A stretch of 64,000 nucleotides of DNA from a candidate division TM6 bacterium GW2011_GWF2_32_72. GTDB taxonomy: Bacteria > Babelota > Babeliae > Babelales > CAIQNR01. The notes beneath the pieces are model-generated. The model searched no databases. It had not been told where the DNA came from and saw only the letters and a program-made list of their open reading frames with translations. Where the stretch lies: assembly GCA_945882015.1 (NCBI GenBank), contig CAMCVM010000003.1:33342-97341 (forward strand). Direction: 5' to 3'. Shown here piece after piece: positions 4,466 to 44,094 of this stretch. Every line of letters starts with the position of its first letter. Positions within the stretch are counted from its first letter, which is position 1. A program made the translations under genes and the position numbers.

Positions 4466-6182
4466 GTCGTTCAGTTCTTAAATTGGTAAGATCGCGATAT
4501 CCTTTTAAAAATGCTCTTGCAATCATTAAAGAAAGTGCTGCAGAGCCTGCATTTTCAACTAAAACAACCATGGTCATGGTAGGTTCGTTTTTATATTTAA
4601 AATTTACTGCAACCCAGCCGTGTTCTAAATATTGTTCACCCATATCCCGCTTTTCTAAATCAGAAGTTTGAGCAGTACTTGTTTTTGCAAATACTTCAAA
4701 ACCTTTTAAATTAGCTAGAATTCGTGCAGTTCCTTCATTGACTACTTCTTTCATGGTGTCTTGTAAAAATAAGCGAGTTGAATGCGCAATATTGAGTGGT
4801 TCATAGTGTACGGTGCTTTCTTCTAAGATTCGTGGAGTTACAAGGTAGCCAGTATCGATTGATGCAATCATACGGGCAATTTGTATTGGAGTAACTAATA
4901 AAAAACTTTGTCCAATACAGGTGGCAAGTGTTTCGCCCAGCCACCAGCGTTCGCCTTTTGTTTTTAGTTTCCAGGCCTTGGTAGGGATCAGTCCAGGATT
5001 GTCATTAAAAACAGAATTGGTATTTTTGCCCAGCCCAAATCGGCCAGCATAGTTTGCAAGTGTGTCAACATCAATATCACGTGCAATGCGGTAAAAAAGA
5101 ATGTTACATGACTTTGCAACTGATTCAGTAATAGAAAGTGGACCATGACCTGTTTTGCGATGGCAGTGGAATTTACGTTGTCCTACCTTTGTAGATCCTT
5201 TGCAATTAATTATTTTATCAGCTTGAATAATATCAGTTTCAAGAGCTGCAGAAAGAGTGACTAATTTAAAGATTGAACCGGGTGGGTAACATGCATTATA
5301 AATCCGATTTAAAAATGGTTTATTGTCTTTAAGTACTTGCCAGTCAGCTTGATTAAGTTTTTCCAAAAATCTATTAGGGTCAAAATTTGGCCGAGAAACA
5401 GCAACGCGTAAATTACCATTTCTTGAGTCCATTAATAAAAAGATACCTTTTTTTTCAGCAGGGAAAAGCATTTCTGCTAACTTTTGTAATGAAAGATCAA
5501 GGGTGATGGTCAGATCTTGCCCTGCAAGACTTTGTTCAATCTGTTTTTCAGACAGATGTTTTCCAAAAGAATTAAGAATTTTTTGATTAATACCATGTTT
5601 ACCTTTTAAACTACTTTCATATAATTTTTCCAGCCCCATTTTTCCAGCCCAACCGGTATCAAGATTTCCAAGATACCCAAGAATATGGCTAGCCATGGTG
5701 TTGTATGGGTAAAAGCGTGCAAAGTCAGTTTCTATAATAATTGAACAATCAGCTGAAAATTGTTCTGAAATTTTACTCAATAGGTCAAATGGCAGGTCTT
5801 GAGCAATCACAATTTTTTGTGCTTTGCGTTCAGCTTGTTCCAATGTTTCTTGTGTAACGCACAGTTCGGGGATAAAGGTTTTCAGATGAGCAAGTAATTT
5901 TTTTTGTTCTTCAGAAAGTTTTTTATTTCCATTGCCTTTCCAGTACACATTAATCACTGGTCGGTTTGTTGCAAGTAATTTTCCCGTATAATCAATGATA
6001 TTACCACGTAGTGGATTAACTTTTTCATACCGTAAAAAATTATGCTGACTTTTTTTTAAAAGATTCTGAGTAAGGTTAATTTGTAAATAGCCAAGCCGAA
6101 TCACAATCAAAATGCAAACGATGCAAACAGTTGTTGCAAGAATAAAAATTTTACGTATAAAAGATTGTTCTTGGGCTATCAT
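4446..6182 (-). CDS. mrdA: penicillin-binding protein 2 (class B transpeptidase)
   Basis: 578 aa with an N-terminal TM anchor. Transpeptidase motifs are SxxK (GSIFKLVT), SxN (KSCNILF) and a K-T-S variant of KTG (FAKTST). Confidence 0.85.
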   Translation of the reverse strand: MIAQEQSFIRKIFILATTVCIVCILIVIRLGYLQINLTQNLLKKSQHNFLRYEKVNPLRGNIIDYTGKLLATNRPVINVYWKGNGNKKLSEEQKKLLAHLKTFIPELCVTQETLEQAERKAQKIVIAQDLPFDLLSKISEQFSADCSIIIETDFARFYPYNTMASHILGYLGNLDTGWAGKMGLEKLYESSLKGKHGINQKILNSFGKHLSEKQIEQSLAGQDLTITLDLSLQKLAEMLFPAEKKGIFLLMDSRNGNLRVAVSRPNFDPNRFLEKLNQADWQVLKDNKPFLNRIYNACYPPGSIFKLVTLSAALETDIIQADKIINCKGSTKVGQRKFHCHRKTGHGPLSITESVAKSCNILFYRIARDIDVDTLANYAGRFGLGKNTNSVFNDNPGLIPTKAWKLKTKGERWWLGETLATCIGQSFLLVTPIQIARMIASIDTGYLVTPRILEESTVHYEPLNIAHSTRLFLQDTMKEVVNEGTARILANLKGFEVFAKTSTAQTSDLEKRDMGEQYLEHGWVAVNFKYKNEPTMTMVVLVENAGSAALSLMIARAFLKGYRDLTNLRTERQKKASV

Positions 6183-6184
6183 TA

Positions 6185-7105
6185 TTAAAGTTCTTCTTTT
6201 TCCATAGTATTAAGCGGGTGAATCGTATCACACATATCAGCAAGTTGAGCAGAAGTAATATGGGTATACTTTTCAGTACTTGCTAGTGTAGCATGCCCTA
6301 ATAATTCTTGCACAACACGCAGATCAGTTCCTTGATTTAAAAGATGTGTCGCAAAAGAATGGCGAATTTTGTGTGGAGTAATATTTTTATTACCTTGTAA
6401 AAAAGATCTGAACATTTTCATAACGCGTTGCACTGTTCGTTGATTTAACGGTTCGTTAACGTGACTGACGAGTAAAAAATCTTTATCACTTACCGGTTTA
6501 GGTCGCTCTTTTTCAAGATATTCAATAATCCGTTCTTTTGCCTTTTTACCAAATAAAGCAAAGCGTTCCTTTCTGCCTTTTCCAGTAATACGGATAATTT
6601 TTTCTTCTAAATTAACATCTTGAATTTTAATATTGCATAATTCAGAGCACCGAATGCCCGTTGCATATAACAGTTCAAAAATAGTTTTATCGCGAATAGG
6701 GCGAATTGAGGGCAAATCTTCGTCTTTAACCGTATCCAGTAAATAAAAAACTTCATCAACGGTTAAATAGGTAGGGAGCTTTTTATCAATGCGTGGCCGT
6801 TTGAGTTTAAGATTAAGACGAATATCAAAAATTTTAAGATAATTTTCAAAAGATCTGAAGCATGAAATTTTGCGAGCTACAGAGCTTTTATCTATTTTTT
6901 TATGAAAAAGGAATACAAAGTACCGTTCTAAAGCTCGACGCAGTTCAATCTTTTCAGATTCTTCTTGTTCTACTCTGGTCCAAAAATCACAAAAAAGTTT
7001 AAAATCACCTTTGTAAGACTTTTGGGTATTAAGACTTAAATTTTTTTCGATATTAATATAGCTTAAAAAATCATTTCTATATTTTTTAAAATCTTGAAAA
7101 TACAT
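6185..7105 (-). CDS. tyrosine site-specific recombinase, XerC/XerD type
   Basis: 306 aa with the catalytic pattern ATGIRCSEL, HKIRHSFATHLL, LGHATLASTEKYTH. Its stop lies 2 nt upstream of the PBP2 start, so the two are probably co-transcribed. Confidence 0.85.
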   Translation of the reverse strand: MYFQDFKKYRNDFLSYINIEKNLSLNTQKSYKGDFKLFCDFWTRVEQEESEKIELRRALERYFVFLFHKKIDKSSVARKISCFRSFENYLKIFDIRLNLKLKRPRIDKKLPTYLTVDEVFYLLDTVKDEDLPSIRPIRDKTIFELLYATGIRCSELCNIKIQDVNLEEKIIRITGKGRKERFALFGKKAKERIIEYLEKERPKPVSDKDFLLVSHVNEPLNQRTVQRVMKMFRSFLQGNKNITPHKIRHSFATHLLNQGTDLRVVQELLGHATLASTEKYTHITSAQLADMCDTIHPLNTMEKEEL

Positions 7106-8794: not shown

Positions 8795-9562
8795 ATGAAA
8801 TTGCATAGATTAGGATTATTTGCTGTATGGATTCTATCTTTTCAACTACAATCAAGCTTTGTTTTTACAAAAAAAGCATATCCTTTAATAGTCCAAAGTT
8901 ATCTATTAGTAAAACGTCATGCAGCAAATCAACCATCTTTTGCTCTTAATGAATCGTTTAAAGAAAAAGATTGGGATAGATATTGGCGCCATTTCCCTTA
9001 TGCAGCATCGGCAGTAAAAGATATTTTTAATGCGAGAAATACCAGTCCAAAAGAATTTAGCTTTATTATAAAGCAAACTATAAATTGGGAATATTGTTGT
9101 GCTTTTAATACCTTTTATTATCCACAACAAGACATAGCAGAATTTGATGATACGTTACAAAGACAAACTTGGGGACTTGCTGAAAAAAAGAGATTACATT
9201 GGGATATTATGAAAGATGGTATGACAACTAAACAGCAGCATGTTCTTCTTGTAAAAGGGATTATTGGGCATGAACTACAGCATGCTTTTGATAGAGGCCA
9301 ACTGTTGTTATTATTGCATTCTCCTGTTGCTCTCCACTCTCAAGATAAAAAATATCAAATACTTAAAGAACTTGAACATAAGGCAGATACGTATGCTTCA
9401 CAAGATCCAGCAGTACTGGAAGCACTTGCAAAATTTTTTATGCATCTGCATCTATTGCATATAAAAAATCAAGAACTAGACCAAGAAAGTAAACAACATC
9501 CATCATGTTTAGAACGAGCACAGTATTTTTTTGAATTAAGTAAATTAAGAACGAAAAAATAA
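8795..9562 (+). CDS. secreted HExxH-motif protein, tandem paralog 3 of 5
   Basis: 255 aa with a signal-like N-terminus. Motifs: FPYAASAVKDIFNARN..PKEFSF, GHELQHAFDR, HKADTYASQDPAVLEALA. Confidence 0.8.
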   Translation: MKLHRLGLFAVWILSFQLQSSFVFTKKAYPLIVQSYLLVKRHAANQPSFALNESFKEKDWDRYWRHFPYAASAVKDIFNARNTSPKEFSFIIKQTINWEYCCAFNTFYYPQQDIAEFDDTLQRQTWGLAEKKRLHWDIMKDGMTTKQQHVLLVKGIIGHELQHAFDRGQLLLLLHSPVALHSQDKKYQILKELEHKADTYASQDPAVLEALAKFFMHLHLLHIKNQELDQESKQHPSCLERAQYFFELSKLRTKK

Positions 9563-24010: not shown

Positions 24011-25654
24011 TTACATAGTTTCTGGTTTTGAAACGCCCATTAAATCTAAGCAACGTTCAAATTGTTCTTTAACTAGAGTAGTCAGTAAAAGTCGACCACG
24101 GCTTTGGCCTATAGTCTCAGGTTCAATAACTCGATTATGGTGGTAATAATTGTGGAAAATATGAGCAACTTCTAAAAGATAATAAGCGATCAAGTGTACC
24201 TGATGATTGGTTGCAATCGTAGCTAACAAAGTTTTTAATTCAATAATTTTTTTGAGCATCAGCACTTCACCATCAGTCAAGTATTGTGCATCATCGGCAG
24301 TAATACCTTGTAAGCCAGGGTGTTCTTGTGCCTTTTCTAAAATGCTTTTTGTTCTAACATAAGCGTATTGTAAATAATAGACAGGGTTTTCATCAGTTTT
24401 TGAAAGTGCTAAGTCCATATCAAAATCAAGATGCGCATCGGCTTTTCTGTTTAAGTAGAAAAAACGTGCAATATCTTTACCAACTGTTTGCGTAACATCA
24501 GATAATCCAATAATTCTGCCAGCTCGTTTTGAAAGTTTTAAATATTGGTCGCCTTCTTTGATAGATACTAATTGGTAGATAATGCATTCCAGTTTAACGT
24601 CATCAAGGTCAAGTGCTTTTCTAATACCTTCAAGTCGTTTTGGATAGCTATGATGATCTTGACCAAGTACAATAATTAAATGGTTAAAGCCACGTTCTGC
24701 TTTAGCAAGTAAATATGCTGCATCAGCAGCGGCATAGGTGTATTCACCATCAGCTTTTTTAAGGACTCGGTCTTTATCGTCCCCAAAATAAGTCGAACGG
24801 AACCACAATGCACCTTCAGAATGGTAGAGGTAACCATTTTTTTCTAAAAGTTCAAGTGCTTGTTTAATTTTATTGCCATGTAATGTTTGTTCAGAAAACC
24901 AAACATCAAATTCAATGCCATACTCATGTAACGTTGTTTTAAGAAGCGCTAATAAATGTTGGTAACCGTATTGAATAAAAAATGTGTTTGGTTTTTCAAG
25001 CACGGCTTTTCCGTGTTCTTGAATACATTGCGCAGCCAAATCTTTAAGGTACTGACCTTGGTAAGCATCTTCTGGCATAATAACTAAATGGCCAAGTTCT
25101 TGCTGACAACGAATTTTTAATGAGTTACCTAATTTTTGCATTTGTGCGCCAGCATCATTGATATAATGTTCGGCTGATACTTGATACCCTAAAAATTTTA
25201 AAACACGAGTAAGTGTGTCTCCAATAATACCGCCTCTGCCATGTCCAAGATGTAATGGGCCTGTTGGATTGGCACTGACAAATTCAACATTGTAACGTGT
25301 AAGAGGATTTTCAACTTTAAAGAATTTATGTTTCTGATTAAAAAGATCCTGAGAAAGTGACTGAAAAACAGCTAAAGTAAGGTGAAAATTTAAAAAACCT
25401 GGACCAGCGCTTTCAATTTTTGTTACAAAAGGGTGCTTAAAATTGGTAATAATTGCTTGTGCTATGTCCCGAGGTGCTTTATTTATTTGTTTTGCAAGTT
25501 GCAATGCAACGGTGCAGTTGATATCACCAAATTGTGCTTTTTGAGGGTCAGTATTAATGACAAAATCAATATCGCGGCGCTGTTCAGGGGTAAGCGAAAA
25601 GTGATTAATCAAAAATTCAGAAAACGATTGTTTTAAATTCTCAAGAGCATTCAT
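24011..25654 (-). CDS. argS: arginyl-tRNA synthetase
   Basis: 547 aa. HIGH region is SANPTGPLHLGHGRG. It has an ArgRS N-domain and a C-terminal anticodon-binding domain. Confidence 0.93.
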   Translation of the reverse strand: MNALENLKQSFSEFLINHFSLTPEQRRDIDFVINTDPQKAQFGDINCTVALQLAKQINKAPRDIAQAIITNFKHPFVTKIESAGPGFLNFHLTLAVFQSLSQDLFNQKHKFFKVENPLTRYNVEFVSANPTGPLHLGHGRGGIIGDTLTRVLKFLGYQVSAEHYINDAGAQMQKLGNSLKIRCQQELGHLVIMPEDAYQGQYLKDLAAQCIQEHGKAVLEKPNTFFIQYGYQHLLALLKTTLHEYGIEFDVWFSEQTLHGNKIKQALELLEKNGYLYHSEGALWFRSTYFGDDKDRVLKKADGEYTYAAADAAYLLAKAERGFNHLIIVLGQDHHSYPKRLEGIRKALDLDDVKLECIIYQLVSIKEGDQYLKLSKRAGRIIGLSDVTQTVGKDIARFFYLNRKADAHLDFDMDLALSKTDENPVYYLQYAYVRTKSILEKAQEHPGLQGITADDAQYLTDGEVLMLKKIIELKTLLATIATNHQVHLIAYYLLEVAHIFHNYYHHNRVIEPETIGQSRGRLLLTTLVKEQFERCLDLMGVSKPETM

Positions 25655-33167: not shown

Positions 33168-33914
33168 TTATGCTACAAAAATTTCTCCATTTTTTCTATA
33201 AGCTAATGCTGGTTTATGGCGACGAATATTAAATAAAAAGTGACCAATAATAGTAGAGCAGTTAAGTAAAGGCTTATTGCTTAAATGCATCTGACGCATA
33301 AGATGAAACCCAAAAACGCTCATTGCGTAAGGATTAAACCAATGTTCATGACGATATTGCGTATGAAGGCTAGTAAAATAACATCCTGCAACCATTGATA
33401 CAGAAAGGTCTATCCAGGGATTGTTTAATCCAGAGGCTTTTTTAAATCCTCTAACTAATAATTGTGGTAACATAACATAGAGCGCTTCTTCTTCAATTAC
33501 ATTAGCTAGAACGTCAAGGTAATTGATTTTAGGAGCTTGTTGCGGTTTATTATTTGGCTTCTCCCACCATCTCGGTTTGGGGGGTTCTTGCCTTGGAGCA
33601 ATTATACTGCGTAAATTTTGAGCACTGTTATCAAGCAATACAGCATCGAGGCATAATCGTGCCCCTGCCAATAATTGTTGACCTAAATCTGGTTGAGTAG
33701 GAAGCAATCCTAAATCTTGACCTACTGTTTTAGCTAAATAAGATAATCCAGCACGGGCAAGAGCAGGAACAGCTGATTGAGATTCTTGTGTAAATGCAAA
33801 TTTATTGTAAGTAGTTATAAAAATTAAAAAAAATAGATATTTCTTATAATCAGTGAGTATCAAGCTTTTTTCTTTCATGATAGGTTTTTGTATTAACAGA
33901 GTAATTGTATTCAC
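33168..33914 (-). CDS. hypothetical membrane-associated protein
   Basis: 248-aa ORF with a probable start at the internal Met 33878 (MKEKSLILTDYKKYLFFLIFI..). It has C-terminal hydrophobic segments. No family was recognised with confidence. Confidence 0.5.
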   Translation of the reverse strand: MNTITLLIQKPIMKEKSLILTDYKKYLFFLIFITTYNKFAFTQESQSAVPALARAGLSYLAKTVGQDLGLLPTQPDLGQQLLAGARLCLDAVLLDNSAQNLRSIIAPRQEPPKPRWWEKPNNKPQQAPKINYLDVLANVIEEEALYVMLPQLLVRGFKKASGLNNPWIDLSVSMVAGCYFTSLHTQYRHEHWFNPYAMSVFGFHLMRQMHLSNKPLLNCSTIIGHFLFNIRRHKPALAYRKNGEIFVA

Positions 33915-34621: not shown

Positions 34622-34678
34622 ATTATTATATTTTTCATTCGCTCTTCTCATATTCAATCTTAATCAACTATTGCTGTA

Positions 34679-35056
34679 CGCCCTACGCGGGCGTTGCGGC
34701 AAAGCGGGGTTACTGCCAACCCCCTTTGCAATCCGGGCACCAGGGATAAATCCCTTGGAACCCTTTGCAAATTCTAATTCCCTCCGGTTCGCGCTCGCCT
34801 TTGCTACGCACGGCTGCACGTCTGAAGATAATTTGCGCTAAAGTACTTAACTTGATTAGAAAAGATGTCATCATGAGCGCAGCGTGGTGATCCAAGATTA
34901 TAGTTTATTAATGATAGCTCTTTATCAGCTTAGCTGAGCGGAAGTCCCGCAGGATCTGCAGTGAATCTAAGCGTGGGGTTTTAAGGGGTACCCCCTAATG
35001 TGTTGAGTCCAGAGGGGTGCACAAACATCCCTTTGGTGCAACGCCCGCAGAGGGCG
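34679..35056 (+). repeat. GC-rich hairpin-dense repeat element, copy A (MITE/REP-like or structured RNA)
   Basis: The ends are palindromic GC hairpins forming ~19-nt terminal inverted repeats (CGCCCTACGCGGGCGTTGC ... GCAACGCCCGCAGAGGGCG). Its reverse complement matches 46152-46504. GC content is far above the surrounding sequence. Confidence 0.85.
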
Positions 35057-35199
35057 CGCAGAGAGTAAATAATTAAGATTAAATATTAAGAGAAAAATAG
35101 AACTACAAAAATTAATACAAATATAATCTTGGACCTTCACACTGCCTTCAGGGTGACATCTAAGAAAGAACACTTTTAAAATAAGAAAATTTGTAAGCT

Positions 35200-37989
35200 T
35201 TATTGTAAAGCGACAACCCCTTTATTGCCGCCTGCAAAAATGGCACCTGTTGCTCCAATATTGCTGATCCAATAAAAGCGATCTTGTGTTTCTAAAGCAT
35301 TGTCAGCTTCAAACCCTGGTTCGGTATTGATATTCCAATCAGCAGTTCCCACGCGATAGGGTAAGCAATAGATATTATTCTGACGTCCATCTGAACTTGC
35401 AGGAATACCAATAAAAAATCTACGTGCTCCATCAGACCAGAAATATTTGGTTGGTACCACATCTGTTATGGTTGATCCATCAGTGCAAAATTGTGCATTG
35501 GGCATATCAGCAAGGGTGACAATATCAGAACTATTAATTTGACGCCATGAAGAGCGAGTATAAGTTTGTAACCCGAGCGCATCATCTGCCCAATGGCTTG
35601 CCCATACGGTTGATTCATAACGATTGTGAGTCGGTCCAGTTAAAAAATCATAAACATTTTCATCAGTTGCAGGGTTAGTCACTTGTGTCCAGGTTGCTTC
35701 TGTCTGAGTAGTGTCAGCATTGACTGCTGCAGCAGAACGATAGAGTCCATCATTGGTTGCAAGTAACAGTTTATCCGTTGAATTGTCAGCAGCGGACGGC
35801 ATAGGGAATATATCATAGAATAAAGTAGCAGTGCTCAAATCAGAAGCGGTTCCTAATCCAGTTCCAGATGATGCAATTAAAACAGTATCGCGAATTAAGT
35901 CTGTAATGTCTTCAGCGATTTCAATTCTATAAACTCTGTCAACAATGGTAGTATTGTTTCTGTCTAAATCACGGGTTAAAACATAGATCTGATTTTTAGT
36001 ACTTTTAATCTGTTTAACTTCACCAGAAATTGCAGTAATTTTTTGCCAAGAATAGGTTGTGGTATCAAATGGTACTGCGTTTAAATCCGCATAATTGGCT
36101 GAGTCAAATCCAGCTCCATTCGCAGTCAAGGCCCAGGCATACAATCCATTTTTGGTTCCAGCTAAAAAATAACCATTAGTCCCACCGCCTGCTCCTTTTG
36201 AATAACCAAGTGCAGTTACCGGTGCAGTTTCATTGGTAATTTGCGTAACCAGATAGGCGGTTGCTGCAGTAAAGTCAGAAGTTTCAGATTGGACTCCAAG
36301 AAATGCATTAGTTGCTGAAGTGCTTGTTTTAACAAAGACAACTTTTCCAGCCGCTCCACCAAAATAGGCATAACGTCTTGCTGCAGTGCTGGTGTCTCCA
36401 AAATTCACCGTTGATTGATTTAAATCATAAAAAGAAAAGCATCCGCTAGAAAGTAAGCTATTCAGTTGAGCAACTAATGAAGTTGTACCAGCTCCAGTTG
36501 TAGTCCACTCTGTCTTTTTAATCACGGTGCCACTTATTGTTACACCCCAGATATCACCGGTTGTTGCGTCAACTGCTATTTTTTTTGTTGAACCATCGGT
36601 TGCAGAATTTCCCAAACTAAACGGTGCAGCTTTTGCCCAATCGGTCCAGCGAGCAATTTTACCCAAGTCATTAAAAACTGCTTGTGAAAAATAAACACCT
36701 GGGGCATTGGTTGCTCCAACGGTATCGCTTGAAATTGCGCAATAAACCGCATCACCGACAACGTGCATATCAGAAACATAAATGTCTGCGTCATTTGCAA
36801 CTATAGGTAATACTCCACCACCAACTAAGGCAGAAGCAGTAGTTTTTGTGGCAAGATGTTCTGCAGCAGAGGCTTGGACATTAAAATGGCTGACCGTATC
36901 AAAGGTATTTGCGCGTGCCAACGTTCCATCGATATCGGTACCATTTCCCGAAACTAAGGGAACTGCATAGACTTCATTGCGAGTATTTGCGTCAGCTGAA
37001 CCACTTCCATTAACAATTAAATAATAAAAACCAGTTGAAGTTTTCATAACTGCCAATTTGCGTAATGCAACAACATCTTGTCGCCCTTTAAAACCAACAA
37101 TTCGTGTATTGTCATTCATTGACATTGCCTGATTTGCACACTGATTTAATTTGGTCAGCGTATTATTGTCAGGGTCAACTTTAAAGATTGCAACACCAAA
37201 AGCTCTGTCATTTTCATCAACGTTTTCACCGGTCATTTGTGCTGAAACATAGAGCCGTTTTAAATCGTCATTGTAAATCATATCAAAAAAAGGGCCCGGG
37301 ACAGAATTTGCTGTAATACCAAAAATAGCGCTTGCTTCCGTTGCATCAACATTAACGGCTTTTGGAGTGTTAGTGGTTCCATTGCTTGCGTCATAATACG
37401 TAAAGGTTGGAGTGGTTGCGCGATTTATGCGTACTAATGCAAGTCCATCATGTGCATCTTCGCCAAAATTATTATCGACTTGTCCGTTATCTTTAACCGC
37501 TACAATAACATGTGTTGGCGTAGCAACAAGACCAAGGATTTCTCCTGTTGTGTCTCCATTTTCATCCTTAATCGCCGCACTTGCTGCATAACTAGTACCT
37601 GCATAATCAATTACTTTAAAGATAGTTGAGCTGACCGTTGCATCATCTTCTGCAGTAAATACCAAATATGGTTGTGTTGGTAATGTTGCACTCTGTGAAA
37701 GGGACAGGTTACCAATATATTTACCCGTTACTGCTGCATTGCTGCCAATTGCAGCAAATGTCGGTTCTTGATTAAACCAATCATGGGTTACTTTTGAAAG
37801 AGCATAACTACCAGCGCCATTGGTTAAACCAACAAACCAGGTTTGTGATGGCCGATGGAAAGCGCTTGAAACTAAAGCGGTGGTAAAGGTTGTATTTGCG
37901 GTGGTTGAGTTGCCGTTTGCAATCACGACCGGATTGGTTTTTTGTATGGAACTGACAAAACATAACAGTAAAAATTTATTAAACTTCAT
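35200..37989 (-). CDS. large secreted Thr/Ala/Gly/Asn-rich surface protein, paralog of 41272-44094 (beta-propeller-like, family not recognised)
   Basis: 929 aa with a signal-like N-terminus and an AAGGA RBS. It shares long blocks with the 940-aa paralog (VYAVPLV.G.GTD.DGT, ARW..WAKAAP, GLYAWA, WQ.IT.I.G..K.IKS, LLATNDGLYRS, W.DG.RRF.I, YRVG.A.WNI). Confidence 0.8.
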   Translation of the reverse strand: MKFNKFLLLCFVSSIQKTNPVVIANGNSTTANTTFTTALVSSAFHRPSQTWFVGLTNGAGSYALSKVTHDWFNQEPTFAAIGSNAAVTGKYIGNLSLSQSATLPTQPYLVFTAEDDATVSSTIFKVIDYAGTSYAASAAIKDENGDTTGEILGLVATPTHVIVAVKDNGQVDNNFGEDAHDGLALVRINRATTPTFTYYDASNGTTNTPKAVNVDATEASAIFGITANSVPGPFFDMIYNDDLKRLYVSAQMTGENVDENDRAFGVAIFKVDPDNNTLTKLNQCANQAMSMNDNTRIVGFKGRQDVVALRKLAVMKTSTGFYYLIVNGSGSADANTRNEVYAVPLVSGNGTDIDGTLARANTFDTVSHFNVQASAAEHLATKTTASALVGGGVLPIVANDADIYVSDMHVVGDAVYCAISSDTVGATNAPGVYFSQAVFNDLGKIARWTDWAKAAPFSLGNSATDGSTKKIAVDATTGDIWGVTISGTVIKKTEWTTTGAGTTSLVAQLNSLLSSGCFSFYDLNQSTVNFGDTSTAARRYAYFGGAAGKVVFVKTSTSATNAFLGVQSETSDFTAATAYLVTQITNETAPVTALGYSKGAGGGTNGYFLAGTKNGLYAWALTANGAGFDSANYADLNAVPFDTTTYSWQKITAISGEVKQIKSTKNQIYVLTRDLDRNNTTIVDRVYRIEIAEDITDLIRDTVLIASSGTGLGTASDLSTATLFYDIFPMPSAADNSTDKLLLATNDGLYRSAAAVNADTTQTEATWTQVTNPATDENVYDFLTGPTHNRYESTVWASHWADDALGLQTYTRSSWRQINSSDIVTLADMPNAQFCTDGSTITDVVPTKYFWSDGARRFFIGIPASSDGRQNNIYCLPYRVGTADWNINTEPGFEADNALETQDRFYWISNIGATGAIFAGGNKGVVALQ

Positions 37990-38001
37990 AATTTATATCC
38001 T

Positions 38002-38048
38002 TTTTTAAGATAGTAACTATGATAGTCCGACGTTTATAATGTTGCAAG
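38002..38048 (-). promoter_or_regulatory. sigma70-like promoter of the 929-aa gene; copy 1 of a 47-bp direct repeat
   Basis: The minus strand reads TTGCAA(38047-38042)-17 nt-TATCAT(38024-38019), about 30 nt upstream of ATG 37989. It matches 38767-38813 at 46 of 47 positions. Confidence 0.6.
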
Positions 38049-38064
38049 GTTATGCAAAAGAGAA

Positions 38065-38451
38065 TCAATTTTTATTTTTTTGTAATACTTCAATAAGCTC
38101 ACTAAATGCTTTCTTGAATGATGGGAGTAAGATGATCAATTTACTGATTGCGTTATCCATATAAGTATGAGATGTCATATTACGCATATCTAAAAAATCA
38201 AACCATAATTGCGGTTCAATATTAAATTTTTCAGCAGATTTCCTAAAAACTTCTCTTGGGCTTTTTGTTTCAATTCCTTCATGAAGTAAGGCTCTTTTGA
38301 GGGCTTTCCAACTTAATTCATAGCAATATTCAAATGCTTTTATAACGGCCGTTTCTTCTGCTTCATTCTGCATTTTTGAGAATTGTAGTAATTTTTTTTC
38401 TGCTTTAATCAGTTGTTCAATATTAACTTTTTCATAATTTTCTTTATTCAT
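38065..38451 (-). CDS. hepT: HEPN-domain toxin, nucleotidyltransferase substrate-binding (HI0074/HepT) family
   Basis: 128 aa and helical, with the Rx4-6H HEPN motif in DMRNMTSHTY. It overlaps the upstream NTase gene by 8 nt. Confidence 0.8.
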   Translation of the reverse strand: MNKENYEKVNIEQLIKAEKKLLQFSKMQNEAEETAVIKAFEYCYELSWKALKRALLHEGIETKSPREVFRKSAEKFNIEPQLWFDFLDMRNMTSHTYMDNAISKLIILLPSFKKAFSELIEVLQKNKN

Positions 38452-38752
38452 TTTCTATTCCTAGATTTTTTTTATTAAGCAGTACTAGATCTTTTTCAAT
38501 ACTGGCAACGAATTTCGGATCACAACGTTCTTGTATTACAACGTCAACCGTAAATGGTAAATAAGATTCTTCAAAAGCATCGTTAATATAAAACGATTCT
38601 AAATTGGTGACTGGCTCTTTAATGAATAAATCTAAATCAGAAAATTTACGGCATTTACCGGTTACCCGGGATCCAAATGCGTAAAAGGTAAAGGGAAACT
38701 GTTTAATAATTTCCCAAACTATTTTTTTATCTTTTTCTTCCATATAAATCAT
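38444..38752 (-). CDS. mntA: minimal nucleotidyltransferase antitoxin (MNT/MntA, HI0073 family)
   Basis: 102 aa. The pol-beta NTase motif is AFGSRVTGKCRKFSDLDLF (GS-x9-12-DxD). It is paired with a HEPN gene. Confidence 0.8.
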   Translation of the reverse strand: MIYMEEKDKKIVWEIIKQFPFTFYAFGSRVTGKCRKFSDLDLFIKEPVTNLESFYINDAFEESYLPFTVDVVIQERCDPKFVASIEKDLVLLNKKNLGIENE

Positions 38753-38766
38753 AGAGGCTTACTTTC

Positions 38767-38813
38767 TTTTTAAGATAGTAACTATGATAGTCAGACGTTT
38801 ATAATGTTGCAAG
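38767..38813 (-). promoter_or_regulatory. copy 2 of the 47-bp repeat; likely promoter of the mntA-hepT operon
   Basis: It carries the same TTGCAA(38812-38807)-17 nt-TATCAT(38789-38784) arrangement, about 30 nt upstream of the mntA start. Confidence 0.55.
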
Positions 38814-38943
38814 TATACTGAAAAAAGAGAAGCTTAATTTTAAAAAAATAAGCTTAAAATCTAATTATTCTTGTTACTGAGTTATCTATTTTGTTATAAT
38901 CAGAAGCGTATCAAGGTAAATCAGAATCAAAAAGGAGGTTTTT

Positions 38944-39804
38944 ATGAAAAATATATCTAATAATTTGTATTTTTATTTACTCTTATTTATTTCAACAATA
39001 AGCAAGGCTGATGGTCCTTCTAAGGCTTTAGAGCTTATGCAAGCTATAGTAGATAATAATTATCCCGATTACGTTATTCCAATCGATCAAGCAATAATAC
39101 CTGATTTGCCATATCAACTTAAAATGGTTCAACAGAATTTACTTGATAATAATCCTGAAAAAGCACATCATAATCTCCGTTTTTTATTACGTGATCCAAA
39201 CAAAATTCCAGGTTTTATAAAATGTGCTAATTTTTATCAAAAAGTAACAGATTATGCAAGCGGAGGAAGATTGACAGGTGTAAAGATTTTTGATGAAAGA
39301 ATTGAACAATTTTTCGTAAAGCTTTTTGAGGCGATTGTCACTTATGGGAATCAGCAAGAATTTTTATTGGTAGCAGATGATTTATTTCATGGACATGTAA
39401 TTTTATTGCATGATAAAGTAACTAACTTTTCTGATATTATAATTGTATTTCATGCTAAAGAATTTCCTGCTGATTTGCCTGAAGCGGGAGGATTTAAAAG
39501 TAGAGCTGCTTCTCCTGTTAATTTTAATATGAAAGATGACACAGCATTTAATAAAAGAAATTTTATTTATTCATTGCGTTCTCATGCATTAATTAATTTG
39601 CAAAAAAATCCTTTAAGTCCAGACTATAAAAGCTATAAAGAGCTCATTACTGAATATGATCCATATTCAGACCTTAGAGTTAATACGGTAAGAGAGCATT
39701 ATTTTGGGCAACCATTATTTGATATTAACTATTTTCCTAATTTACATGGATTTGCAAAGAATGTTCCTGACCCACAAAGATGTCCCGTTTTATTTGCTTA
39801 TTAA
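38944..39804 (+). CDS. hypothetical secreted protein
   Basis: 286 aa with a strong AAGGAGG RBS and signal-like N-terminus YFYLLLFISTISKA. No family was recognised. Confidence 0.65.
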   Translation: MKNISNNLYFYLLLFISTISKADGPSKALELMQAIVDNNYPDYVIPIDQAIIPDLPYQLKMVQQNLLDNNPEKAHHNLRFLLRDPNKIPGFIKCANFYQKVTDYASGGRLTGVKIFDERIEQFFVKLFEAIVTYGNQQEFLLVADDLFHGHVILLHDKVTNFSDIIIVFHAKEFPADLPEAGGFKSRAASPVNFNMKDDTAFNKRNFIYSLRSHALINLQKNPLSPDYKSYKELITEYDPYSDLRVNTVREHYFGQPLFDINYFPNLHGFAKNVPDPQRCPVLFAY

Positions 39805-39830
39805 AAATAAGATCACTCAGGATGATATAC

Positions 39831-41081
39831 TTAGAAATCAGACGTAATTGAAAATCCGACCGATCCGGTAACAGTGTGGTTTTCAAATGCTCTTCGTGCT
39901 CTGACAACATGATTGTAACCAATACCAAACTTTGGGTGAATTCTACGTTCTTGCGAGTTTGCAAAATCAAATTCTGCGCCAACATGTACCACATGCATTG
40001 ACCAATCTTTGAGCATGCTGTCTTGGTTAATCACAGAACCTGGATAAAGTGCATTGTTTTTTGCAACCAGGCTGTCATTACCTTTGTGACTATAGGTGTA
40101 GCCGGTATATAATACAGCAGCACCATATTCTATTTTAAAGTGTCCGCCAACTTCATATAAATTACCCATTGTTTTACTGACGTGTGTTTTTGCAAGTTTG
40201 ATAAAACCATTTTGGCCCAGTGCAGATTGAATGCGTTGTAATGAACTGCGTTTAAACAAAAATGTTTCCTGTAAATGGAACCCAAATGAATAATATGAAG
40301 CAAACCCAAATGCCATATCAAAGCCCAGAAAGACTCCTTTATGTTTGTCATAACCAGGAGCAACAGAAAACGCATAATCTTGATCTTTTGCTGCAGCGGT
40401 GCCAAGTAATGCACCAACCTTAAGTGTCGCATCAAGATAATCTAAGTTATCAAGCGTGTCGGTGCTACGGGTCCATCCAGCAAAGACAGAAACATCACCA
40501 ATCCCTTTGATGCTGTGTCCTTGTCTGCTTAAATTGCTGTCAGCTAAAATAGTATCAAACAAGGCAAAAAATTGGTTCCATTCCGCATCGCGGTCAACTT
40601 CTGCAGTCAAATCAACAAAGGTTGGAGTTTTGATCTCAATTTTATAAAAAGGAATGGTTGAGCCAATAAAAAATTCATCAGTCAGATTCAGCCCAACTGA
40701 AATGGCACCACCTGAATAACAACATTTGCCGGTAAAAGCTAACGTTGCATAATTTTGATCTTCTGTAGTTGGAGTATGACGCCACAACGTATCAAGAACA
40801 TCTTGGCTTATTGCTGATAGGTTTTGATTTTCAACATTTTTACCAATTTGATGCATTTTGTGATTGCCATAAATGCCTAAAACATTCACGCTTTTTCCAT
40901 CACCATCTTTACCTTTGGTGGTGTTGCCATGTCCTCCGAAAGCATCGATGGTTAATAAGCCTTTGCGCTCATAACGTGTTCCAAAGGGATACTGGTGTGC
41001 CGTATAAAAATGTGAATGGGCATAAAAGGTGTGTGGTAACAGAATCAATAAACTGAGTAATTTGAGTTTGTCAGATAACAT
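39831..41081 (-). CDS. outer-membrane beta-barrel protein (porin-like), paralog of 44116-45381
   Basis: About 416 aa from ATG 41081 (AAGGAA RBS). It has a signal peptide and alternating amphipathic beta-strand pattern. The C-terminus ends SVGFSITSDF, with the terminal aromatic Phe typical of OMPs. Confidence 0.7.
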   Translation of the reverse strand: MLSDKLKLLSLLILLPHTFYAHSHFYTAHQYPFGTRYERKGLLTIDAFGGHGNTTKGKDGDGKSVNVLGIYGNHKMHQIGKNVENQNLSAISQDVLDTLWRHTPTTEDQNYATLAFTGKCCYSGGAISVGLNLTDEFFIGSTIPFYKIEIKTPTFVDLTAEVDRDAEWNQFFALFDTILADSNLSRQGHSIKGIGDVSVFAGWTRSTDTLDNLDYLDATLKVGALLGTAAAKDQDYAFSVAPGYDKHKGVFLGFDMAFGFASYYSFGFHLQETFLFKRSSLQRIQSALGQNGFIKLAKTHVSKTMGNLYEVGGHFKIEYGAAVLYTGYTYSHKGNDSLVAKNNALYPGSVINQDSMLKDWSMHVVHVGAEFDFANSQERRIHPKFGIGYNHVVRARRAFENHTVTGSVGFSITSDF

Positions 41082-41220
41082 CACAATTTCCTTTTGCTTG
41101 AAGAGTAGTTGTTTCTAAGCGTTACCTAGTCTGACAAAAAAGTAAAGAGTCAAGATGTTTATAAAGAATAAACAAACATCTTAATCCGCCGAAGGTAAAA
41201 ACGAAGGAGGGTAGGGTAAT

Positions 41221-41271: not shown

Positions 41272-44094
41272 TTACAGTAGAACAATGCCAGTGCTTGTAC
41301 CAACTGCAATATGTCCATCAGGTAGTTGATTGATGCAGTACAGGGTTTTATTTGCTAATGCTGAAGCTGATACTTTCTCAACAGGGTCAGTAATATTCCA
41401 ATTTGCTGCACCTACTCTATATGGCCAAATGTAAAGCCCGGTTGTACCTGTTGAATCTTCAGGAGTTGCAATCATAAAGCGACGTACACCGTCAGTCCAG
41501 TAATCAAGAATTCTCTTAGCTCTTAAGAAGGTTGTTGTGCTATCAGAAAGATAATGACTAAATGGTAATGATGTTACCACATTATTACCTGTTGCGCCAT
41601 TATCATCATCTGAACAAATAAATTGATCTAAATCACGGAAATTATATGTTCTGGTATTACTACTATTATCTTTAAGTGAAACTGCTTGGAGTGTTGTAGT
41701 TAAGTTAGTTTTGCCTTTTGAGAAAATACCAGTAAACATTTGCCCTCTTGTATCCTTATTTCCGACTTTTTCACCAATCGGTGTCCATAGAGCAGTTGCT
41801 TGGGAAGTTGCACCAGCTATACCAAGAACGTCGTCAGTTTTTGATTGGTAAAGGCCATTATTAGTCGCTAAAATTACTTGTGAACCTGTGCCAGCTGTTA
41901 AACCATTGATGATTTCAAAATCAAGGATTTGAGTAGCAAGTGTTAAATCACTGCTGGTTGCTGAAACACCAGATTGAGCAACCACTACAGTACCGGTAAT
42001 TAATGTACCAACAGTAGTAGCATTAGTTGCTAGCATATACAGTGTATCAACTATCGTAGAGTCTGTTCCAATATCACGAGCAAGTATAAAGGTTCCAGCA
42101 TCAGATGATTTAATCTTCTTAATATGACCAGTAATACTGGTAATAGCTTGCCAAGTATTTGCATTAGCAAAGAAGCCATCATTTAAATTGGTAAGAAGTT
42201 CTGCTACCCCTGAGTTTAATTCAGCACCTTCTCCATCTGCTGTATTTGCATACGCATAAAGGCCCTCTGTTGTTCCAGCTAAGAAAAAGAAAGCTTTCGC
42301 GGTTGTAGTATGAAGAGTTCCACCAAGTGCTGTTACATAACCCGCACCAGAAGGTAAGGTTGTGGCTAAGAAATTTATAGCAGCAGAATAATCAGTAATA
42401 GCTGTTTCATCAATCGAATATGTTCCAGCTGGATCATCTTCAGCAGATGTTCTTGTTTGGACAGTAAAGACTACTTTTTCTTTACCACCAAACACTGCCA
42501 TACGCGAAATAACCTGAGCACCCCAATTAACGGTTGTTCTGTCAAATACAGCCATTGCGGTACAGCCATCAGTTGCTAATTGTGCGTTAACAGCTCCAGC
42601 AAGTTCTGTAGCGCCTGTTTGATCTCCCCAGGTAGTAACTTTTACAGTAGAAAGAGCATTACCTACTATTGCCCATACTTTACCACTACGCGGATCAACT
42701 TTAAAATCATGTACGTCGCCATCAGCTGTTCCTGTTCCGATTGCGTTTGGAGCAGCTTTTGCCCAGCGTGACCAACGAATTATTTTACCGTTTTCATTAA
42801 ATTCTGGAGTTGAATAAAAAATACCAGCTTCATCGCCATTAGCATGACCTAGAACGCTTGATGAGACGTATACTGTATCACCAATTACTTGCATTCTTGT
42901 TAGTGTATCAGCTGTGAAGGGCAGTTTAACAGTTCCAACAATAGCATGAGCATCAGTATTAAGTGGAATATCTGTCGCACCGCTTGCTTGAATGTTAAAA
43001 GTAGGGGTATTTAATTCACTTTTAGCAAAAGTACCATCAGCATCCGTTCCAAGTCCTTTAACTAGTGGTAAAGCATAAACTTGATCTCTTAAATCAGCAC
43101 CAGCAGCTCCTGAGCCACCATTAATAATTAAGTATGCGTGTCCGGTTGAAGTATGCATGACTCCTAAATTATATGCTTTTGCAACTCTTGCCGCAGGAAC
43201 AGCAGATGCAGCAGCAAAAACAATTCTTGTTGCAACATCTCCAGTATCAAAAGCAGCTGTATTAGCAACAGTTGCTAATACGGTTAAGTTACCAGCAGCA
43301 TTAGTTGTTTTTGCAACTAATGTACTAATAGCAATATCTCCCGCTGTGCCGCCTGAAGTTACTTGTCCCCCAATATACAGTCGAGATAAAGTTTCATCCC
43401 AATGAAGAACAGGGTCTTGATTTGCTGTTAAAACTGCAGTTGCAGTTTTTCCATGAGATGTTCCAAGAGGTGCTGCTGTAGCTATTATTGCAGCAGAGTT
43501 AGAAGCTCCAGGAATAGTTAAAGCAGTTTGATCAGTAATTGCTATGACGTTAATACCACGGCCTGCAGTAGCCCAGTTAGTGCTAGCTGTAACAGCTGTT
43601 GCTGCAAAAATAGCAGAACCATTAGCTGCTAATGCTCTTATACCGTTAGCTGCAATATCGGCTCCAGCAATATCTTTTAAAGTAGCGTTTGTTCTTTCAT
43701 CTACTGTGCCGTCTGCACTTTGGATACATACTCTTGTAGTATTAGTTGTGTCTTCTACAAAAGCAAGACGAATAGCATTAGTTGTTGGGTGGTATGATGG
43801 TGCCATTAAACGAATACTAACGTTTGTTGCAAGTCCAGATGCAACACCAGTTTGAGTTGGCGTTGTACCATCATTAGTATGAGCAGAAATTTTGGTAATA
43901 TTATTTAGATCTGCTGCACCAGCTGCAGCTGTTCCAATATAAAGATCACCAGTTGTTCTATCAAGTACCATCGTATTTGTACCAGTGGTAATTGCAGTAT
44001 CAAGGGTTACCGAATCAGGGGCGCATTGTATAAACGGCATAGCTAGGAAACTGCTTAAAAGCAGTCCTAACTTAAACGTTCTGAATGTTTTCAT
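41272..44094 (-). CDS. large secreted Thr/Ala/Gly-rich surface protein, paralog of 35200-37989
   Basis: 940 aa with a signal peptide and an AAGGAA RBS. It starts 21 nt after the upstream OMP gene stop, so it is probably co-transcribed. Conserved blocks are listed under the 929-aa paralog. Confidence 0.8.
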   Translation of the reverse strand: MKTFRTFKLGLLLSSFLAMPFIQCAPDSVTLDTAITTGTNTMVLDRTTGDLYIGTAAAGAADLNNITKISAHTNDGTTPTQTGVASGLATNVSIRLMAPSYHPTTNAIRLAFVEDTTNTTRVCIQSADGTVDERTNATLKDIAGADIAANGIRALAANGSAIFAATAVTASTNWATAGRGINVIAITDQTALTIPGASNSAAIIATAAPLGTSHGKTATAVLTANQDPVLHWDETLSRLYIGGQVTSGGTAGDIAISTLVAKTTNAAGNLTVLATVANTAAFDTGDVATRIVFAAASAVPAARVAKAYNLGVMHTSTGHAYLIINGGSGAAGADLRDQVYALPLVKGLGTDADGTFAKSELNTPTFNIQASGATDIPLNTDAHAIVGTVKLPFTADTLTRMQVIGDTVYVSSSVLGHANGDEAGIFYSTPEFNENGKIIRWSRWAKAAPNAIGTGTADGDVHDFKVDPRSGKVWAIVGNALSTVKVTTWGDQTGATELAGAVNAQLATDGCTAMAVFDRTTVNWGAQVISRMAVFGGKEKVVFTVQTRTSAEDDPAGTYSIDETAITDYSAAINFLATTLPSGAGYVTALGGTLHTTTAKAFFFLAGTTEGLYAYANTADGEGAELNSGVAELLTNLNDGFFANANTWQAITSITGHIKKIKSSDAGTFILARDIGTDSTIVDTLYMLATNATTVGTLITGTVVVAQSGVSATSSDLTLATQILDFEIINGLTAGTGSQVILATNNGLYQSKTDDVLGIAGATSQATALWTPIGEKVGNKDTRGQMFTGIFSKGKTNLTTTLQAVSLKDNSSNTRTYNFRDLDQFICSDDDNGATGNNVVTSLPFSHYLSDSTTTFLRAKRILDYWTDGVRRFMIATPEDSTGTTGLYIWPYRVGAANWNITDPVEKVSASALANKTLYCINQLPDGHIAVGTSTGIVLL

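Follow-up and report, generated by a model that had tools for sequence, protein, structure and literature searches.

A nucleotidyltransferase/HEPN gene cassette between promoter-like direct repeats at a polymorphic locus of a Babelales bacterium

Here, we describe a cassette of two overlapping genes, encoding a predicted nucleotidyltransferase (NTase) antitoxin and a predicted RNase toxin of the HEPN type, which lies between two near-identical 47-nt direct repeats in a 64,000-nucleotide stretch of DNA (hereafter the window) from the candidate division TM6 bacterium GW2011_GWF2_32_72 (Bacteria; Babelota; Babeliae; Babelales; positions 33,342 to 97,341 of contig CAMCVM010000003.1, assembly GCA_945882015.1). 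Within the species the cassette is polymorphic, and the locus exists in four allelic forms, one of them an empty site in which the repeat occurs once. Taken as a whole, the evidence is probably best explained by a promoter-less cassette that sits between promoter-like copies of the repeat and can be gained, lost or exchanged without a dedicated recombinase. While toxin–antitoxin pairs are patchy across genomes, the movement of bare toxin–antitoxin cassettes without a mobility gene is poorly documented, and here one species displays filled, clean empty, apparently disarmed and replaced sites at base-pair resolution. The gene family itself is ordinary and the mode of insertion is known for other addiction modules; what is most interesting is the allelic series, together with the young islet of DNA in which the cassette is found.

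Direct repeats and alleles of the cassette

The two copies of the repeat, P1 (38002-38048) and P2 (38767-38813), both taken on the minus strand, match at 46 of 47 bases, and none of 100 dinucleotide-preserving shuffles gave a match of this kind. Their plus-strand sequence is TTTTTAAGATAGTAACTATGATAGTC[C/A]GACGTTTATAATGTTGCAAG, the single mismatch falling at the 27th position (C in P1, A in P2); on the coding strand, P2 has GTCTGAC where P1 has GTCGGAC. Alignment and shuffles thus agree with the original prediction, made from the letters of the window, that 46/47-identical 47-bp repeats tightly flank the gene pair. In the 819-kb assembly, which is 92% complete and in which the window is part of contig C3, a pattern search allowing up to three mismatches and a blastn-short search found just these two copies. 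Scans of collections of species-representative genomes and viral contigs returned no match to the repeat, and a scan of metagenome contigs returned one, which was the entry point to the allele series described below.

Between the repeats, the NTase gene (38444..38752, minus strand, 102 aa) comes first and overlaps the HEPN gene (38065..38451, minus strand, 128 aa) by 8 nt. The end of P2 is separated from the NTase ATG by a 14-nt leader, GAAAGTAAGCCTCT (38753..38766, minus strand), which forms the left end of the inserted cassette, and the end of P1 lies 12 nt from the ATG of a downstream gene for a 929-aa secreted or surface protein (35200..37989, minus strand). A spacer, TTCTCTTTTGCATAAC (38049..38064, minus strand), occupies the interval between the HEPN stop codon and P1 and weakly resembles the sequence upstream of P2. 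Upstream of the 47-nt core, this weaker similarity continues for about 19-30 nt (TTCTCTTTT...), with TTCTCTTTTG-CA-TAAC in one copy against TTCTCTTTTTTCAGTATA in the other, and its score was equalled by 52 of 5000 random 25-mers (~1%, p about 0.01), which is suggestive only that the duplication may extend to about 66 nt. Were the duplicated unit of this length, the insert would consist exactly of the 14-nt leader and both genes up to the stop codon (702 nt). This 702-nt insert holds two genes only and no mobility gene.

The locus was recovered from 13 public assemblies at 96-100% identity, by exact-sequence look-ups and one metagenome scan, and takes four forms. Allele A, the filled type found in the window, occurs in at least six assemblies (L034, L035, L036, L040, L045 and L047), in which both copies are present with a constant G/T difference; the T variant of P2 is fixed across every filled allele. 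Allele B (L042; JGI 3300049043, a 203-kb contig also held at NCBI) is empty: a 286-aa gene, which in the window lies on the far side of P2, is followed by ...CAGTATA, one copy of the repeat, AGGATATAAATT and the ATG of the 929-aa gene, and the cassette is absent. Alignments of this contig to the window stop at 38064 and resume at 38767, overlapping on the one copy, which is flanked by P2-type sequence upstream and P1-type sequence downstream and is collinear with the window on both sides. An empty site with a single 47-bp copy in a related strain, which the original prediction had proposed as its check, is thus present, in one assembly.

Allele C (L043 and L046, from two Logan assemblies) shares the leader and both copies of the repeat with allele A, and in it the initial 23 nt of the NTase gene run in frame into another HEPN gene, giving a product of 136 aa. 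In allele D (L033, L037 and L038, three assemblies), the 286-aa gene and P2 are absent, and the fused HEPN gene is separated by 26 nt from the stop codon of the 417-aa gene, which borders the locus upstream; the HEPN gene is followed by four small genes, a fragment of a repeat resembling a miniature inverted-repeat transposable element (MITE) and then a single P1-identical copy before the 929-aa gene. The MITE-like fragment is 37 nt long and lies 5 nt upstream of the promoter-like repeat. The 14-nt leader is common to the filled and variant-cassette alleles, and a diverged form of it follows the 417-aa stop codon in allele D. The 47 nt of P1 are unchanged in all allele types that have the start of the 929-aa gene, with the exception of one base in the empty-site copy.

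The 136-aa fused gene has different surroundings in L043 (3042-3452, minus strand) and in L037 (6899-7309). Its product begins with the start of the NTase, MIYMEEK, and continues as a diverged HI0074-type HEPN protein that is 39% identical to the HEPN protein of the window and in which the motif reads RNKAANFF, the catalytic histidine and the acceptor tyrosine both being lost. It looks like a disarmed toxin remnant left after deletion of the antitoxin, which such a protein would no longer need.

A young islet and its promoter-like repeats

The cassette and both repeats belong to a 1.84-kb islet (37996..39833) placed between the stop codon of the 417-aa gene, whose product resembles an outer membrane protein (OMP), and the ribosome-binding site of the 929-aa gene. 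In gene orientation, the 286-aa gene, which is encoded on the other strand, is separated from P2 by a spacer of 130 nt, and P2 is followed by the cassette and then by P1. When the A and C alleles are compared with the window, the islet shows 0 differences in 1020 nt on the 286-aa side, 0 in the 47 nt of P2, 0-2 in the 718 nt of the cassette and 0 in the 53 nt of P1, whereas the flanking 417-aa and 929-aa genes are 6.5-9% and 3-4% different, respectively. Synonymous divergence (dS) reaches 0.29-0.39 in the 417-aa gene and about 0.10 in the 929-aa gene, with a ratio of non-synonymous to synonymous divergence (dN/dS) of 0.06-0.18. As the divergence of the flanks is mainly synonymous, they are old alleles under purifying selection, not hypervariable ones; diversifying selection, considered as the source of this divergence, was ruled out by dN/dS values in this range together with high dS. 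The islet also has a lower G+C content (29-30%) than the flanking genes (39-41%).

A near-invariant islet in strains carrying old flank alleles argues for recent spread of the islet by recombination. The points at which identity ends vary by allele, lying between 1 and about 370 nt outside the islet, and this is the pattern that homologous recombination tracts would be expected to give. From these comparisons we conclude that both the promoter-like repeat and the islet to which it belongs are young DNA and have spread over diverged backgrounds. A tiny islet is thus able to spread over old, diverged surface-protein alleles in a reduced-genome intracellular bacterium, which implies ongoing recombination between strains.

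An arrangement without the islet is seen in a genome of another genus in the same family (G003), where the ortholog of the 929-aa gene (930 aa, 58% identity) lies 24 nt after a 424-aa OMP-like gene, with a second pair, of an OMP-like gene and a 948-aa gene, just upstream. The window has the same tandem arrangement, in which a 421-aa gene is followed by a 940-aa gene and the 417-aa OMP-like gene (39831..41084, minus strand) is followed by the 929-aa gene, whose upstream partner in the operon it ancestrally was; it is this second pair that the islet splits. The genome of a same-genus relative (G001) is in too many fragments for the locus to be seen.

On the minus strand, each copy of the repeat reads TTGCAA-17 nt-TATCAT (38047-38019 in P1 and 38812-38784 in P2), the -35 hexamer of P1 lying at 38047-38042 and its -10 hexamer at 38024-38019, with a leader of ~17 nt. 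From the end of the -10 hexamer to the ATG there are 29 nt for P1 and the 929-aa gene (ATG at 37989) and 31 nt for P2 and the NTase gene (ATG at 38752), in good agreement with the predicted distance of ~30 nt upstream of each gene. The hexamers match the sigma-70 consensus at 9 of 12 positions, with a spacer inside the range of 16-18 nt and a position, relative to the gene, as expected for a promoter of this class. Sites scoring at least 9/12 are found in this genome in 33% of 100-nt upstream regions in the sense direction, in 16% in the antisense direction and in 9% inside genes, which suggests that the consensus has some predictive value here and that a score of 9/12 is unremarkable; the 'strong promoter' of the original prediction is therefore not upheld. 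In allele A, P2 is the only sigma-70-like match on the NTase strand within the spacer. Back to back with it is a promoter-like site of the 286-aa gene (38871..38900, plus strand; TTGTTA-18-TATAAT with a TG). No RNA family was found by Rfam in 37000-40000.

Because the repeat is preceded in alleles B and D by a gene that faces the other way, the 929-aa gene requires a promoter of its own; the same applies to the NTase gene in allele A. The distance from the repeat to the ATG of the 929-aa gene is unchanged in all four alleles. From this we infer that the repeat is an islet-borne, outward-facing promoter, which would have restored expression of the 929-aa gene after its split from the OMP-like gene. 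The alternative that the repeat is the ancestral promoter of the 929-aa gene is unlikely, because the islet, with both copies, is near-invariant while the flanks have diverged, and because the ortholog in G003 lies in a locus without the islet. The earlier proposal that the pair had been inserted into the surface-protein promoter region, or duplicated with it, needs correcting on this one point, the repeat being part of the young DNA; as a whole, that proposal is largely upheld, with a cassette that is polymorphic and has an empty site.

Turning to the neighbouring genes, the 929-aa protein belongs to no Pfam family; its gene is a paralog of the 940-aa gene and has orthologs across the family. 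The 286-aa gene (38944..39804, plus strand) encodes a signal-peptide protein, is transcribed away from P2 and is identical at 861/861 nucleotides in the A and C alleles and at 860/861 in allele B. Its product has no Pfam or NCBIfam family, and a search of 20 relatives found a single distant homolog, in G006 (38-44% identity) and in an unrelated context. The 940-aa paralog (41272-44094) is 23% diverged from its counterpart in an allele-D strain (L037 1863-4721, 952 aa) and 0.2-0.5% diverged from those of other strains, a pattern suggesting that the allele of a large secreted-protein gene has been replaced. GC-rich copies or fragments of a MITE-like repeat occur in intergenic regions of the locus, at 34661-35160 in the window and at 4993-5511, 9249-9285 and 12259-12482 in L037.

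The gene pair and related cassettes

Both proteins carry the motifs of a type VII toxin–antitoxin system. The NTase (FGSRVTGKCRKFSDLDLF) has GS, ten residues and then DLD, corresponding to GSX10DXD in an alignment with HI0073, and the HEPN protein has RNMTSHTY, corresponding to RX4HXY and aligning with RNLTNHTY of TTHA0048. Profile searches place the NTase in PF18765 (35.6 bits, above its cut-off) and PF01909 (32 bits, cut-off 21), and the HEPN protein in PF08780 (NTase_sub_bind; 82.6 bits, cut-off 31.8) and in the HI0074 family TIGR01987 (64 bits, cut-off 55.8). The HEPN protein scores 17.6 bits against the Pfam HepT-like family PF01934, below the cut-off of 23.5, and the NTase likewise falls short of the NCBIfam MntA equivalog NF047752. 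The profile check suggested with the original prediction therefore recovers the MNT and HEPN families through PF18765, PF01909, PF08780 and TIGR01987, and fails for PF01934 and NF047752; of the 'MntA/HepT' label, the motifs, the gene architecture and the PF01909/PF08780 assignment hold, and the names themselves do not. The accurate label, judged from these sequences, is an HI0073/HI0074-type MNT/HEPN pair.

Structural relatives agree with this label. The only sequence relative of the NTase in the PDB is 1no5 (HI0073, E 2.5e-11), and those of the HEPN protein are 1wty (TTHA0048), 8xdj (a Legionella HEPN toxin) and 1jog (HI0074, E 2.2e-7). HI0073 and HI0074 of Haemophilus influenzae (1no5, 1jog, TIGR01987) are thus the best named relatives of both proteins and are likewise two small genes in the same order, although the relationship is distant (E 2e-7 to 2.5e-11). 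The pair is single-copy in this genome. Across the order, the HEPN family has a match in 144 of 261 genomes, often several, at no more than 47% identity to the HEPN protein of the window, and a word-based protein search with that protein returned only two near-identical proteins.

Class I HepT/MntA systems are defined by RX4HXY and GSX10DXD in neighbouring genes of PF01934 or PF08780 and of PF01909 (Yao et al. 2020, PMC7641770), and in the window both motifs are found in neighbouring PF08780 and PF01909 genes. The type VII systems described in Shewanella (SO_3166/SO_3165) and Legionella (HEPN-MNT; PMC7641770, PMC11586414) share with the pair their adjacent, overlapping genes with the MNT gene first, as well as both motifs and the pairing of PF01909 with PF08780, which is one of the class I pairings (PMC7641770). 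They differ in that the HEPN protein of the window is of the HI0074/NTase_sub_bind family and not of the DUF86/HepT family, and in that its NTase lies under the MntA cut-off. On these grounds the most likely function of the pair is that of a type VII toxin–antitoxin module, with the HEPN protein as RNase toxin and the NTase as antitoxin, in which case the toxin would be neutralised by AMPylation of the tyrosine of RX4HXY by the GSX10DXD nucleotidyltransferase.

Near-perfect direct repeats also bracket 5 of 73 other HEPN cassettes in the order. These repeats are 29-99 nt long and consist of unrelated local sequence: a duplicated dnaJ terminator hairpin of 29 nt in G195 (L056 1417-2204), a duplicated 43-nt segment from upstream of lepA in G010 (L005 1366-2521), the duplicated 3' end (last 99 nt) of the preceding gene in G249 (L066 2854-3754), and local sequence in both G040 (61 nt, 61/61 identical; L102 2587-3457) and G048 (57 nt, 56/57 identical; L104 2442-3469). 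Their variable length and local origin argue for duplication of the target, rather than for sites borne by the element or for a fixed staggered cut. The related cassettes also differ in gene order, the HEPN gene being first in G012 (L004 1131-1837), G010 (L005 1413-2095), G195 (L056 1492-2170) and G249 (L066 2977-3662) and the MNT gene being first in the window (38065-38752), G040 and G048.

Proposed routes of gain, loss and exchange

A matching empty site in another strain indicates that the pair has been gained or lost without a transposase. As proposed here, the moving unit would be the 14-nt leader and the two overlapping genes, 702 nt without a promoter, between copies of 47 nt (possibly ~66 nt). 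In allele B, the single copy between the divergent 286-aa and 929-aa genes would be the sole candidate promoter for the latter. In allele A, P2 would drive the NTase and HEPN genes, with probable read-through into the 929-aa gene, as there is no intervening terminator, and P1 would keep the 929-aa gene under its own copy, so that downstream expression would survive the insertion. Duplication of a promoter would in this way allow an insertion to avoid silencing the gene downstream of it.

Two steps make up the most economical pathway. In the first, the duplication would have arisen through an illegitimate or one-sided-homology join, or else through single-crossover integration of a circle that carried part of the target. 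In the second, RecA would recombine the copies with one another, or act in the flanks, to give deletion (allele B, if this is secondary) and exchange of the cassette (allele C). Host RecA would find its substrates in the 47-nt repeats and in the conserved flanks, for deletion, for reintegration of a circle and for allelic replacement after DNA uptake. RecA is encoded in the genome, as are two tyrosine recombinases of XerC/D size (~310 aa), and no serine recombinase was found in it. One tyrosine recombinase gene lies in the window at ~6254-6769 (G000:C3:39595-40110, minus strand) and, at ~31 kb from the cassette, is the nearest; there is none in or next to the cassette, as the original prediction had noted.

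Three kinds of known element were considered and rejected. A Xer or dif-like site was set aside on inspection, the 11-6-11 architecture being absent. For a transposon or insertion sequence there is no transposase, inspection found no terminal inverted repeats at the ends of the insert, and the related repeats, at 29-99 nt, are not of the fixed short kind. As for an integron cassette, the repeat is unique to the locus, no attC-like imperfect palindrome is present, and the only tyrosine recombinases, the two of XerC/D size, lie elsewhere.

Several observations weigh against this account of a mobile, promoter-less cassette. The empty site comes from one underlying assembly, the JGI and NCBI entries being copies of the same 203-kb contig, and that contig may contain errors, since its 929-aa and 417-aa genes carry single-base indels. 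The promoter call draws on a 9/12 consensus match and on position, and promoter-like sites in the 3-kb region are fewer than in shuffled sequence (7 vs 13.5). The NTase reaches 29.8 bits against NF047752, below its 60-bit cut-off. Enrichment of flanking repeats at the other HEPN cassettes over control gene intervals is not significant (3/73 vs 3/286, p = 0.10), nor is it under loose criteria (5/71 vs 6/112), and we regard those repeats as a lead and not as a result. Lastly, the data appear to fit both an ancestral empty site and a deletion between the copies. The indels in L042 (window equivalents 35585, 40133 and 40722) split the 929-aa gene into open reading frames of 802 aa and 139 aa and the 417-aa gene into three open reading frames, which may be either real pseudogenes or assembly errors.

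The last of these points leads to the chief rival, in which the duplication and the cassette came first, with the islet, and the single-copy allele arose secondarily by RecA-mediated or slipped-strand deletion between P1 and P2. A deletion between 47-nt direct repeats would yield exactly the junction seen in L042, RecA is present, and the combination of a P1-like G with a P2-type upstream flank in the single copy calls for no more than a crossover in the first 20 nt. Against this, L042 has private differences, 3 in the 1020 nt of the 286-aa side and 2 in the repeat, whereas the filled alleles have none, which places it outside the filled group and not nested within it, and loss of an active toxin–antitoxin pair should be counter-selected. 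We consider deletion of this kind possible but not probable, and the few private differences of allele B favour its being an older state than allele A; a secondary deletion would in any case alter only the direction of change and not the nature of the structure. That the empty-site contig is instead an artefact, with the loop between the two 47-nt repeats collapsed during assembly, is a thought prompted by its single source and its frameshifting indels. We find it improbable, given that the contig is 203 kb long and represents a distinct strain, with flanks diverged by 3-12% and a private base change inside the repeat, and that alleles C and D, neither of them of the filled type, are each found in two or three independent assemblies, such that the site is polymorphic anyway.

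Two further readings turn on the half-sites that alternate within the repeat (ACTAT-C-ATAGT-T-ACTAT) and overlap the -10 hexamer. They could form a shared operator, for which the repeat would be kept twice and through which the toxin–antitoxin pair and the 929-aa protein would come under common control, as the identity of the core at 46 of 47 positions might suggest when the possible upstream extension has decayed. However, there is no recognisable DNA-binding domain in the 102-aa NTase or the 128-aa HEPN protein, nor does any further copy of the repeat mark a regulon in the genome, and variation is missing across the whole islet, so its recency accounts for the identity of the repeats; we give common control little credence. 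The same half-sites, the two encoded tyrosine recombinases of ~310 aa and the finding of different cassettes at the same pair of sites could also speak for an attachment site of a Xer-like or other site-specific recombinase, with a cassette akin to those of integrons or of integrative mobile elements exploiting Xer (IMEX). This seems to us very improbable, as the sequence is found nowhere else in the genome, lacks a dif-like architecture and has no integrase adjacent to it, and as the repeats around the five other cassettes are unrelated to it, vary in length and derive from local gene ends, terminators or upstream regions, a pattern characteristic of target duplication and not of element-borne sites.

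Insertion with long target duplication was reportedly described for restriction–modification gene complexes by Nobusato et al. in 2000 (Gene 259:99). In naturally competent bacteria the target gene is known to survive it unbroken (Furuta, Abe and Kobayashi 2010, PMC2853133); long duplications of variable length (e.g. 45/46 bp), which often take in a start or stop site, flank restriction–modification genes that lack mobility genes (PMC2853133). Judged by the features that Furuta et al. (2010) used, our locus has repeats longer than 30 bp, a single-copy empty site with collinear flanks and an insert shorter than 20 kb without mobility genes, and its cargo is an NTase/HEPN pair in place of a restriction and a modification gene. 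The likeness lies in a small addiction-type pair between direct repeats of local target DNA of more than 30 bp, in an empty-site allele in a related strain, in the lack of a transposase or integrase, and in a repeat that spans the start region of a gene and leaves the neighbour intact, with other cassettes substituting at the site; even the lengths are close, at 45/46 bp in the H. influenzae examples (PMC2853133) and 47 nt here. The differences are that the cargo is predicted to be an RNase-type toxin–antitoxin pair, not a DNA-cleaving one, and that the host is a reduced-genome intracellular bacterium. With such a cargo, the proposal that DNA breakage by the cargo itself drives insertion (PMC2853133) cannot apply. 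In the literature searched, we found no report of insertion with long target duplication for classical toxin–antitoxin modules.

Minimal mobile elements of Neisseria are cassettes swapped between conserved flanking genes by transformation and homologous recombination. They resemble the present locus in that different gene sets lie between the same conserved genes (here the 417-aa and 929-aa genes) without mobility genes, and the near-identical islet in diverged flanks is a further likeness; they differ in not being defined by internal direct repeats. Integron gene cassettes are likewise small, promoter-less and reliant on an upstream promoter, and toxin–antitoxin pairs are common cargo there, but the locus described here has neither attC nor IntI, and its repeats are copies of the target and not borne by the element.

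Extending the comparison to the order, we tentatively suggest, with more doubt than assurance, that its HEPN/MNT cassettes form a recombinase-less mobile class, which would enter by duplicative insertion at gene starts or stops, with target duplications of 29-99 nt that keep the promoter, terminator or 3' end of the neighbour and later act as handles for excision or swapping. If this were true, insertion with long target duplication would, rather than being a peculiarity of restriction–modification systems, be open to addiction modules in general as a way into the genome, and the species would provide a natural series of alleles (empty, armed, disarmed and replaced) for study. A second isolated direct repeat is present in the same genome, at G000:C8:22556-22625 and 25096-25165; its two 70-nt copies are identical at 67 of 70 positions and 2.5 kb apart, and it may mark another insertion with long target duplication.

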